The translations under genes were made by a program, and so were the position numbers. Positions 32,841 through 35,202 of a stretch of 64,000 bases of DNA are shown here, piece after piece (within the stretch, counting starts at the first letter, position 1; the number at the start of each line of letters is the position of its first letter). Origin of the DNA: a virus (Duplodnaviria > Heunggongvirae > Uroviricota > Caudoviricetes > Crassvirales); the IMG/VR virus record IMGVR_UViG_3300025288_000016, positions 431 to 64,430 of that record. One strand, given 5' to 3'. A model generated the notes under the pieces. It searched no databases and was not told the DNA's origin. It saw nothing but the letters and a program-made list of their open reading frames with translations.

Positions 32841-33773
32841 ATGAAAAATAACACATGGATATATGATTTAGAAACATATCCTAATTGTTTTCAAGCTGTA
32901 TTTTATAATATAGATACATTTGAATGGAAAGTATTTGAAATAAGTGATAGAAAAAATGAAATAAGTGAATTAAGATTATTTTTATATAGTAAAAATTTAC
33001 AACTAATAGGTTTTAATAATATTAATTTTGATTATCCTGTTTTACATAATACTATATTATCAAATAATAGATATAGAATATGGAATAGTTATGAAATATA
33101 TTATGAAGTTGAAAAAATTATAGAAAATAAATACTCAGCTATTTGGAATAATCAAATTAAGATACCTCAATTAGATTTATTTAAAATATGGCATTATGAT
33201 AACAAAAATAAATCAACCTCTCTTAAATGGCTTGAATTTGCTATGAGAAGCCATGATGTAAGAGATTTACCATTTAAAGTTGGTAGTGAACTTACATTTA
33301 AAGAAATGGATGAATTATTATCTTATTGTAAACATGATGTATTAGAAACCTATAAGTTTTTTAATAAATCATTAAAACATATAAATCTTAGACAATTTTA
33401 TACAGAACATGAAAAGTTAAACTTAATGAATGCTTCTGAAATATTAATGTCAAAAGAAATATTTGCTAAATATTTATCTAAAGAATTAAATATATCTGTT
33501 TCTGAAATAAAAAAATTAAGAACAATTAGAGATAAAATTGATATATCAGATATAATATTTAATTATATTAAATTTAATGATATAACAAATCAAAGAAGTT
33601 TAGAAATTTATAAAAAATCAGTTTGGAATAAAGAACAAGAAGAAGGTATTAAATTTACAGTACCATATAAAAATGTAATAAGAGAATATGCTGAAGGTGG
33701 ATTACATAGTTTTGGTAAATCTGGAATATATGAATCAGATAATGAATATATATTAGTAGATGTCGACTTTAAA
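32841..33773 (+). CDS. Family B DNA polymerase, exon 1 (3'-5' exonuclease domain up to the start of motif A)
   Basis: Exo I YDLETYPNCF, Exo II NNINFDYPVL, Exo III YCKHDVLETY. Ends ...LVDVDFK just before the expected SLYPS of motif A. The 3' boundary is approximate. Confidence 0.75.
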
Positions 33774-34167
33774 GCGGAGTAGACAATAAACAATTGCTTG
33801 AATTGCTGGAAAACTAAATTAAATTAATAATTTAACAAGTCAATCAGCAGCGAAGCCTACAGAGTAGGAACGTTCAGAGACTACCTGAGCTATAGCGATA
33901 TAGCTTAATAACAGGAATTAGCTAATAGTAGTGTATTAGTGAAAAAGCGAGCAAAATTTTACTTATAATAAAAATTATTATAAAAAGTTACTTAAAAATG
34001 TGGTTTTCTGTTGAAGAAATTATTAAATTTAATCCTAATTATAAGTGGCAAAATATATATGCAGTATGTAATGGTTATAAACCAACTATGTATGGATATA
34101 TATGGTGTAAAATTAAGATATAGTCCGATACTCTAAGAAATTAGAGATTAACAATAGAAACTGCGCG
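33774..34167 (+). mobile_element. Group I self-splicing intron (~395 nt, no ORF) interrupting the polB gene
   Basis: GC-richer island with conserved-core-like blocks: CAATCAGCAGCGAAGCCTACAGAGTAGGAACGTTCAGAGACTA (P3-P7 5' side) and AAGATATAGTCCGA (P7 3' strand, compare Tetrahymena AAGAUAUAGUCGGACC). A P9 GAAA-type hairpin and a terminal G follow. Exon 2 resumes in frame with SFYPHI. Confidence 0.7.
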
Positions 34168-35202
34168 AGTTTCTACCCTCATATATCATTTAGAAATAAA
34201 TTACATCCAGAACATATACCAGAACCTATATTTAGTAAAATATATGAAGGTTTTTATGAGGAAAGAAAGAAATATGATAAAAAAGACCCAAGAAATTATG
34301 TATTAAAAATTATTCTTAATGGTTCATATGGTCTTAGTAAAGATAAATATGCTTTTTTATATGACCCAAAATGGCAATTAGCTATTTGTATTAACGGTCA
34401 ATTAATATTAACAATGTTAACAGAAAGAGTATTTGAAAAATGTAAAAAAGATGTACAAATTATATTTGAAAATACTGATGGGGCTATGTATAGAATACAT
34501 AGGACTGATTATGAATTACTTAAAGAAGCTTGTAATGAGATTGAAAAAGAGGTTAAAATACCTTTGGAAATACAAGATTGTAAAAAAATTATTGCAAAAG
34601 ACGTAAATAATTACGTGAATATAATAACATATGAAAATATTAAATTTAAGGGATGTTTTGAAATTGATAGAGATTATCATAAAAACCATAGTAAACGAAT
34701 TGTTCCTATTTCTCTCGCTAATTATTTCATTAATAACATTGATATTAACACTACCATTTATAATCATTTACTTCCTGAAACAAAATACAATTTTGCAGAG
34801 AATTATAATATATATGATTTTTGTATTGGTGCTAAAATGAAAGGTCAAAATCAATTATTTCAACGTGAAATAAAAGGTTTAGATATTATTGATACAGAAT
34901 TAGCTAGAATGAATAGATATTATGTATCTAATGAAGGAATAGAATTAATTAAAAAATTACCACCTTTAGAAAAAAATTATTTTACAGAAACTGATAAATA
35001 TAAAGATAAAGTAGATAATAATCAACTTAATATATTTGATATTATAGATGATGTTAAAATTGAACCAAGTAATAGAGAAGAAAACTTAGAAGCTGGTTGG
35101 AAATGTACATTATTTAATAAATATGAAGAAAAAGATGATTATAATATTAATTATAATTATTATATAGATGAATGTAATAAAATTATAAATATATTTAAAT
35201 GA
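34168..35202 (+). CDS. Family B DNA polymerase, exon 2 (polymerase domain)
   Basis: Open frame from 34117. Contains (S)FYPHIS (motif A remainder), KIILNGSYG (motif B) and IFENTDGAMY (motif C variant). The 5' boundary is approximate. Confidence 0.7.
   Translation, partial: SFYPHISFRNKLHPEHIPEPIFSKIYEGFYEERKKYDKKDPRNYVLKIILNGSYGLSKDKYAFLYDPKWQLAICINGQLILTMLTERVFEKCKKDVQIIFENTDGAMYRIHRTDYELLKEACNEIEKEVKIPLEIQDCKKIIAKDVNNYVNIITYENIKFKGCFEIDRDYHKNHSKRIVPISLANYFINNIDINTTIYNHLLPETKYNFAENYNIYDFCIGAKMKGQNQLFQREIKGLDIIDTELARMNRYYVSNEGIELIKKLPPLEKNYFTETDKYKDKVDNNQLNIFDIIDDVKIEPSNREENLEAGWKCTLFNKYEEKDDYNINYNYYIDECNKIINIFK

Follow-up and report, generated by a model that had tools for sequence, protein, structure and literature searches.

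Within a 64,000-nucleotide stretch of a Crassvirales genome (IMG/VR record IMGVR_UViG_3300025288_000016, positions 431 to 64,430; the whole of this stretch is referred to here as the window), we found that positions 32841-35202 very probably make up a single family B DNA polymerase (PolB) gene of a phi14:2-like (crAss-like) marine phage, interrupted inside polymerase motif A by a 394-nt group I intron (33770-34163). Over the polymerase gene, the closest record is Cellulophaga phage phi14:2 (Crassvirales, Steigviridae, Akihdevirus; KC821624 / NC_021806 gene g018x), at 73% DNA identity; the best DNA and protein matches of both PolB and a downstream DnaB-like helicase are phi14:2 and gut crAss-like phages, and related contigs are ~100 kb long. 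All features described here for the window lie on the + strand. For annotation purposes, the polymerase should be called as one joined coding sequence (CDS), join(32841..33769,34164..35202), with Ala at the junction.

The split polymerase gene and its group I intron

The two halves of the gene had been recognised in an initial annotation of this sequence, and we found both as described: an open reading frame (ORF) at 32841-33782 closes on ...LVDVDFKAE*, and the next open frame (34117-35202) holds SFYPHIS, KIILNGSYG and ENTDGAMY. We assign exon 1 to 32841-33769; it contains Exo I (DLE), Exo II (NINFD) and Exo III (YCKHD) and terminates with ...VDVD plus the TT of a Phe codon. Exon 2 (34164-35202) opens with C GCG AGU UUC UAC CCU, i.e. 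(F)ASFYPH, and carries motif B (KIILNGSYG), motif C (NTDG) and the thumb. The break, which had been placed between Exo III and motif A, actually falls within motif A itself: the catalytic Asp is followed by a Phe codon, and it is this codon that is cut after its second base. The spliced product is 655 aa long, and every family B motif tested can be located on it: Exo I (DxE) at D9/E11, Exo II (Nx3FD) at N59/F63/D64, Exo III (Yx3D) at Y162/D166, motif A (DxxSxYP) at D309/S312/Y314/P315, motif B (Kx3NxxYG) at K358/N362/Y365/G366, and motif C (xTDx) at T414/D415, all of them invariant in two homologue alignments. Motif C of this protein reads NTDG instead of DTDS.

Over its whole length, spliced PolB matches phrog_1252 ('DNA polymerase'; E 3e-138). 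Searched as a single sequence against curated models (Pfam DNA_pol_B, NCBIfam and PDB sequences), it gave sub-threshold matches only (E. coli Pol II, E 0.5 and E 4e-4), and a PolB profile had no match among PDB sequences. Since sequence models could not place PolB in family B, structure prediction and a Foldseek search were needed. The AlphaFold (AF2) model of the closest intronless orthologue, P0001 (contig L057 4709-6664, Logan SRR23621035; 84% identical), has a pLDDT of 84.4 and a pTM of 0.77, and the 50 best matches shown by Foldseek against the PDB are all family B polymerases (E 1.7e-12 to ~6e-10, probability 1.00), with TM-scores of just 0.33-0.48 because the protein is multi-domain. 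The window PolB belongs to a divergent phage clade, and its assignment to family B, as first proposed, is supported by the invariant motifs together with the predicted fold of the orthologue.

The segment between the exons is a group I intron by several lines of evidence. A local Rfam scan of 751 nt matched RF00028 (Intron_gpI) at 33758-34147 (49.9 bits, E 1.3e-11, model positions 1-253), in an alignment that deletes P2, places a long insert in P8 and accommodates extra P7.1/P7.2 sequence between P7 and the 3' strand of P3. The ViennaRNA minimum-energy fold of 33762-34170 recovers P1, P3, P4, P5, P6/P6a, P7.1, P7.2 and P9 unaided (z = -2.65). As the initial annotation had noticed, the segment is richer in G+C than its surroundings (27.7% in the intron and 33% in its 5' core, vs. 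21.5% in the exons). The two blocks that had been picked out as P3/P7-like are indeed core elements: GTTCAGAGACTA (33872-33883) contains J6/7 and the 5' strand of P7, while AAGATATAGTCC (34115-34126) contains J8/7 and the 3' strand of P7, and each has only two exact matches in the window.

All group I core helices from P3 to P9 are present in canonical order, including the P3/P7 pseudoknot. P1 is formed by the exon end GUCGACUU (33762-33769, the 5' strand) and the internal guide sequence GAGUAGAC (33777-33784, the 3' strand), with U33769 at the 5' splice site in a U-G wobble with G33777; just ahead of the guide, a candidate P10 guide read off the sequence, GCG (33774-33776), pairs with CGC of exon 2 (34164-34166). 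The 5' strand of P3, UUGCUUG (33794-33800), pairs with CGAGCAA (33948-33954), and compensatory changes occur at 5 of its 7 pairs. Rfam, fold and covariation agree on P4 (33804-33809 with 33844-33849), which encloses P5/P5a (33813-33840) within 33804-33849, and fold and covariation define P6 (GCG/CGU) with its P6a hairpin CCUAC-AGA-GUAGG (33850-33873). J6/7 and the 5' strand of P7 (UCAGA-GACUA, 33874-33883) are seen in both Rfam and covariation, as are J8/7 (AAGAUA) and the 3' strand of P7 (UAGUC) at 34115-34125. Between them lie P7.1 (33884-33915, with a GCGA tetraloop) and P7.2 (33922-33939), together spanning 33884-33939, with 5/11 and 6/7 pairs compensatory, respectively, and P8 (33955-34114), whose 5' strand AAUUUUAC (33955-33962) and 3' strand GUAAAAUU (34107-34114) enclose a 144-nt insert. 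The P9 hairpin CUCUAA-GAAA-UUAGAG (34131-34146), with its GNRA loop, is found by Rfam, by the fold and by covariation scored by hand, and the final intron base is omega-G, G34163. On architecture only (P7.1 and P7.2 present, P2 absent), the intron appears IA2-like.

To quantify covariation, we took related introns from the same polymerase gene (phi14:2; the IMG/VR contigs L023, 3300025159_000134, and L025, 3300005086_000029; and Flavobacterium psychrophilum phage FpV21) and from other marine phage genes (PH357, the Shewanella 1/4 ribonucleotide reductase (RNR) gene and Vibrio terminase genes). MAFFT placed FpV21 wrongly in P7.1-P8, so FpV21 was scored by hand and excluded from the formal count, which covers the remaining nine aligned introns, an RNAalifold structure and 500 shuffles, and spans P3, P4, P5, P6, P7.1, P7.2 and the base of P8. 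In this set, 98.2% of cells form standard pairs (vs. 81.9 ± 1.4% in shuffles, and 23-40% with partners slid), both sides have changed in 25/45 pairs, and none of the 500 shuffles attains any of the observed covariation measures. The hand count over 10 introns, which includes P7, P8 and P9, gave compensatory changes at 29/53 positions with 99.2% of pairs canonical; for example, the P7 pairing GACUA/UAGUC of the window becomes GAUCA/UGAUC in introns from Shewanella and Vibrio phages.

The length of the intron (394 nt = 3n+1) does not preserve the reading frame, and the exon-1 frame holds TAG, TAA and TGA stops within it. Read-through of UAG 33780, or an intein, was considered and is excluded by the 3n+1 length, by the several types of stop codon and by the tRNA complement, in which only tRNA-Gln(UUG) and tRNA-Met were found; tRNA scans of the window (Rfam and ARAGORN) found no suppressor tRNA. 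Translation of the unspliced RNA stops at UAG 33780, and the first ATG of exon 2 lies at 34414, past motifs A and B. Because motif A is split and exon 2 has no start before 34414, splicing appears to be needed for an active polymerase, a conclusion that was drawn at the outset and that these features support.

Splice junction, mechanism and alternatives

We place the 5' splice site after U33769, the last intron base at G34163 and the first base of exon 2 at C34164. Group I chemistry needs the 5' splice site to follow a U that pairs with a G in P1, and U33769|C34164 is the sole in-frame option in which such a U goes together with a G at the end of the intron. The RNA join is ...GAC UU|C GCG AGU..., i.e. 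GUCGACUU-CGCGAGUUUC, and the product reads VDVDF-A-SFYPH, which is the sequence found where no intron interrupts the gene: 15 intronless IMG/VR orthologues (64-70% identity) have an unbroken VDVD[FY]AS[FY]YPH, and the junction Ala and Ser do not vary among 42 database homologues, P0001 included, with identities of up to 84%. The introns of phi14:2, L023, L025 and FpV21 interrupt the gene in the same codon phase, all with a preceding U and a terminal intron G. The guides also follow their exons, with a compensatory change in P1 of L025 (GUGGACUU/GAGUCCAC) and, in FpV21, guides fitted to its own exon sequences (P1 AGAUGU/GCAUCU, P10 UGCU/AGCA). Two neighbouring junctions were tried and rejected: with 33770|34165 the intron would end in C, and 33768|34166 would cut motif A to DxSFYP.

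The initial annotation had put the intron at approximately 33774-34167, a proposal that was right about the length (394 nt) and displaced in position, the boundaries lying 4 nt upstream. In that version, exon 1 would run through AAA 33773, exon 2 would begin at AGU 34168 and the product would read ...DFK-SFYPH. Such a junction has the same length, restores the frame and ends in a G (base 34167), and one distant homologue, phiPMW, does have DIKSMYP; we nevertheless consider it exceedingly unlikely, since the base preceding it would be A33773, not a U able to form the P1 wobble, the introns of phi14:2, L023 and L025 would end in T, A and C, respectively, and the residue at this place is an invariant Ala, not Lys, in the 15 orthologous loci and the 42 database proteins. 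The P10 pairing GCG/CGC is likewise compatible with the 33769|34164 junction alone. The earlier statement that the intron ends in G was correct as such, and the G in question is omega-G at 34163, which is also G in phi14:2, L023, L025 and FpV21, and not the G at the end position originally proposed.

In the mechanism that we propose, the exon end GUCGACUU of the pre-mRNA would base-pair with the guide GAGUAGAC as P1, placing the U33769-G33777 wobble at the splice site, and an external guanosine held in P7 would attack after U33769. The guide GCG (33774-33776) would then align CGC of exon 2 as P10, and the freed 3'-OH of exon 1 would attack after G34163, ligating the exons so that ...GAC UU|C GCG AGU... 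could encode D-F-A-S-F-Y-P-H within the 655-aa polymerase. These steps would constitute standard two-step group I splicing, and we infer that this catalysis takes place in vivo.

Several observations weigh against an active group I intron within a family B polymerase gene. The RF00028 gathering threshold (50 bits) was missed by 0.1 bit, and whole-window Rfam scans, in both gathering and E-value modes, return tRNAs only and not the PolB intron; the Rfam scan that had been suggested as a check was thus positive as a local scan and negative at the scale of the window. Most probably, the shortfall and the misses both stem from the 144-nt insert within P8 together with a composition rich in A+T; ORF-free related introns reach 58-99 bits in Rfam. 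On the protein side, no Pfam polymerase-domain model matches PolB, the sole match being PF10108, below its threshold (20.4 bits, cut-off 24). P1 contains an internal G-A mismatch (G33765/A33781), and in the minimum-energy fold a local A-U hairpin (33963-33983) rivals the long-range P8, which the core needs, for the P8 5' strand. Finally, splicing is deduced from sequence, through the anatomy, homology, covariation and exon junction set out above.

Some of these features would be expected if the intron were a dead relic, in which splicing had been ended by the loss of sequence from P8, by the mismatch in P1 or by competing folds, leaving the polymerase a pseudogene. The decay of its endonuclease gene (described below), the G-A mismatch in P1 and the local hairpin that rivals P8 all point that way. 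We regard such a relic as very unlikely, given that all core helices are intact, that outside the deletion the intron shares 95% identity with the L023 copy, which bears the endonuclease, that L023 and phi14:2 carry the same P1 mismatch, and that both exons are open over their full length with every catalytic motif kept; no second polymerase gene was noticed in the window, though the whole window was not searched for one. A further alternative is that the gene yields separate exonuclease and palm/thumb polypeptides without any splicing, as in naturally split phage polymerases. GenBank KC821624 does give the phi14:2 orthologue as two 'putative DNA polymerase' CDSs; RefSeq now has a joined PolB in their place. 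With the break within motif A, two residues past the catalytic Asp, an exon 2 that lacks a start codon until ATG 34414, beyond motifs A and B, and a complete, covarying ribozyme exactly between the halves, the probability of two separate polypeptides is almost negligible.

We found that scan scope matters for introns of this kind. Local Rfam cmscan runs over ~600-750 nt find both the PolB intron and a second group I intron in the helicase gene downstream (helicase intron A, see below), and filtered whole-window scans miss both. Our own family covariance model (filters off), together with nhmmer, returned only these two introns for this subfamily in the window. In A+T-rich phage windows, whole-window Rfam scans can therefore hide real group I introns, and introns of other subfamilies may remain.

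An endonuclease remnant and the relatives of the intron

The intron had been described as ORF-less, which does not strictly hold. The insert in P8 holds a 41-codon ORF (MWFSVEEIIKFNPNYKWQNIYAVCNGYKPTMYGYIWCKIKI, 33998-34123), a remnant of the C-terminal tail of a GIY-YIG endonuclease, whose ATG was made at a deletion joint and whose UAG stop lies in the 3' strand of P7. This ORF aligns to the last 40 residues (~180-220) of 220-aa ORFs in L023 and L025 and of a 221-aa ORF in the FpV21 intron. The L025 ORF matches TIGR01453 (74.9 bits, cut-off 56) and PF01541 (E 7e-14), the FpV21 ORF matches PF01541 (E 5e-10), and the L023 ORF, closely homologous to them, has these GIY-YIG motifs too. The window ORF has no Pfam match and lacks the GIY-YIG catalytic domain, so that it is a remnant and not a member of TIGR01453. 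Alignment to L023 reveals a clean deletion of ~590 nt in the window copy, which took the leader and residues ~1-180, and the retained tail is ~93% identical to the tails of the intact enzymes. Judged from these alignments, the window intron is a decayed mobile element, an endonuclease-deleted derivative; from the deletion of the catalytic domain we infer a loss of autonomous mobility, and this copy probably no longer homes unaided. Homing in trans, by means of a related endonuclease during co-infection (PMC3984707), is possible.

The intron is more conserved than the exons around it: its identity is 95.3% to L023 (vs. 75-80% for the exons), 89% to L025 (vs. 83-86%) and 87.8% to phi14:2 (vs. 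70-76%). The phi14:2-like intron-bearing alleles are all flanked by GAC UU|CGC, with GTCGACTT in all except L025. Across the 15 intronless alleles, the site is mostly GTAGATTT|TGCATC, with GATGTAGATTT|TGCATCA as the common form. P0001, which at 84% aa and 85-88% nt identity is the closest intronless allele, has flanks of the intron type, GTCGACTT|CGCC (GATGTCGACTT|CGCC), while more distant intronless alleles differ; P0001 represents an empty homing site or, alternatively, precise loss of the intron. Greater conservation of the intron than of the exons, together with the shared flanks, would be consistent with horizontal homing accompanied by co-conversion. The homing cycle can be seen in snapshot within one lineage of introns in marine Bacteroidota phages, with an empty site in P0001, endonuclease-bearing introns in L023 and L025, an endonuclease-deleted intron in the window, and, in phi14:2, a different ORF in another loop. 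It is conceivable, and we rate it as very doubtful, that the endonuclease-less intron is not a parasite in decay, and that the 40-codon tail is translated as a small DNA-binding peptide occupying the homing site, or that splicing of PolB and of the helicase serves as a common gate on replication proteins; a tail peptide, were it real, might for instance give protection from, or compete with, related endonucleases in co-infection.

The phi14:2 intron occupies the same site in the same codon phase, with the flanks GUCGACUU|CGC and a core that is 87.8% identical. GenBank annotates this region as two CDSs and a hypothetical protein, and RefSeq has carried a joined PolB CDS since June 2020. The two introns differ in their periphery: phi14:2 has a 177-nt insert with a 58-aa ORF in P5 and a short, plain P8, whereas the window intron has a plain P5 and the endonuclease remnant in P8. 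Since the phi14:2 exons are only 70-76% identical to those of the window, the window comes from a different phage. The ORF in the P5 loop of phi14:2 (gp030, L001 2489-2665, 58 aa) has as its sole match a weak, sub-threshold one to ProQ_C (E 0.036).

L023 and L025 carry introns at the same site whose cores are 95% and 89% identical to that of the window. At 981 and 978 nt, these introns retain an intact 220-aa GIY-YIG endonuclease, whereas in the window copy ~590 nt, the catalytic domain among them, are gone. FpV21 and relatives (F. psychrophilum phages, Fipvunavirus) have an intron at the same motif A codon position (GAU GU|U GCU GGA), with a homologous GIY-YIG endonuclease in P8 and 79% identity from the P8 3' strand through P9; they differ in a divergent 5' half of the core, the presence of P2, other guides and exon targets, and an unrelated phage family. 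Introns of other marine phages, namely Pseudoalteromonas PH357, Shewanella 1/4 (RNR alpha) and Vibrio 11895-B1, P018-4 and VPMCC14 (terminase large subunit), are 75-94% identical over P3-P7.2, and differ in their host genes and guides, in having P2, in a short P8 and in carrying no ORF. We also observed paired group I introns in some of these phages, in Pseudoalteromonas PH357 at or just after the DNA polymerase gene (L002 1889-2696), and in Vibrio 11895-B1 and P018-4 near the terminase large-subunit gene (L042 479-1653 and L040 833-1663).

Phage DNA polymerase genes are classic intron targets (PMC3984707, PMC3428280). Compared by description, the window intron resembles the IA2 introns of the T4 td/I-TevI type in having P7.1/P7.2, an ORF in a peripheral loop and an insertion site in a conserved catalytic motif of a replication gene; by the same kind of comparison, the polymerase introns of SPO1, Bastille, T7-like phages and Pf-WMP3 interrupt family A polymerases and mostly carry HNH nickases, whereas the window intron sits in a family B gene of a Bacteroidota-infecting crAss-like phage. 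Yutin et al., 2021 (PMC7886860) reported group I introns from several core genes of crAss-like phages, among them PolB, primase and MCP; their report covers gut Delta and Zeta groups and detects the introns by their endonuclease domains, an approach that would miss a marine relative's copy whose endonuclease has degraded. The window intron is an ordinary phage mobile element, the same intron is implicit in the RefSeq annotation of phi14:2, and events of this class are textbook; nothing in the PolB case alters existing knowledge of phage introns.

A twice-interrupted helicase gene and neighbouring tRNAs

A DnaB-like helicase gene (37070-40897), 2 kb downstream of PolB, has two interruptions within its Walker A codons. 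Exon 1 (37070-37225) terminates with ...ITANS and is followed by intron A (37226-37749), a group I intron of the same subfamily as the PolB intron; a mini-exon of 9 nt, AAAATTGGT (37750-37758), encodes K-I-G; element B (37759-39964), of 2.2 kb, interrupts the P-loop at GGT|AAA; and exon 3 (39965-40897) opens with KTQIADW. Joined, the three exons give a 365-aa ORF that is collinear with the intact allele in contig L051 (...ITANS-KVG-KTQIADW). This twice-interrupted helicase is more unusual than the PolB intron.

Intron A scores 97.5 bits (E 5.6e-26) in a 600-nt Rfam scan and 139.8 bits with our own model, whose alignment includes intron A itself, and went undetected in whole-window and 3.5-kb Rfam scans. 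It holds a 73-aa Cys-rich ORF (37490-37711) downstream of P9, with no family match. Among related contigs, it is present in L045 and L046 and absent from L044, L049, L050, L054 and L056.

Element B, at 1.7-2.9 kb, is found in most relatives (L044, L045, L048, L049, L050, L052, L054 and L056). Its conserved 5' end of ~55 nt comprises A[AG]AUUUUGCCCC, a GNRA hairpin and AAYUCMGAAU, and its conserved 3' end is AGUAACAAAUUUG. The ends resemble those of group I introns: a U precedes the element, a G closes it, and P10 and P1 could be formed by a contiguous UUUU-GCCC guide. The interior is variable and contains 4-5 ORFs without a Pfam or PHROG match, and no complete or contiguous ribozyme core was seen in the element; the window copy, and no other, has a partial P8-P7'-P9 match (39690-39791, 29.9 bits). 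A TTG stands at the 3' junction. Element B could be an intron with cargo genes, the divide of a split helicase, or a DNA element. In phi14:2, DnaB g029 (L043, NC_021806 15166-17274) is annotated for the C-terminal part only and opens at K-S-Q-I-T-D-Q, the point at which exon 3 of the window gene starts; the phi14:2 helicase gene probably carries the same insertion, unannotated.

Upstream of the polymerase gene, a tRNA-like sequence at 28427-28542 scores 35.5 bits with Rfam and has good acceptor, D and T arms, with ~57 extra nt, including a hairpin, between the D and T arms and no ARAGORN call; it may be an interrupted or degenerate tRNA. Two further tRNAs follow, tRNA-Gln(UUG) at 30907-30980 and tRNA-Met(CAU) at 32613-32686, the latter ~155 nt upstream of the polymerase start, and L025 likewise has two tRNAs directly upstream of its polymerase gene.

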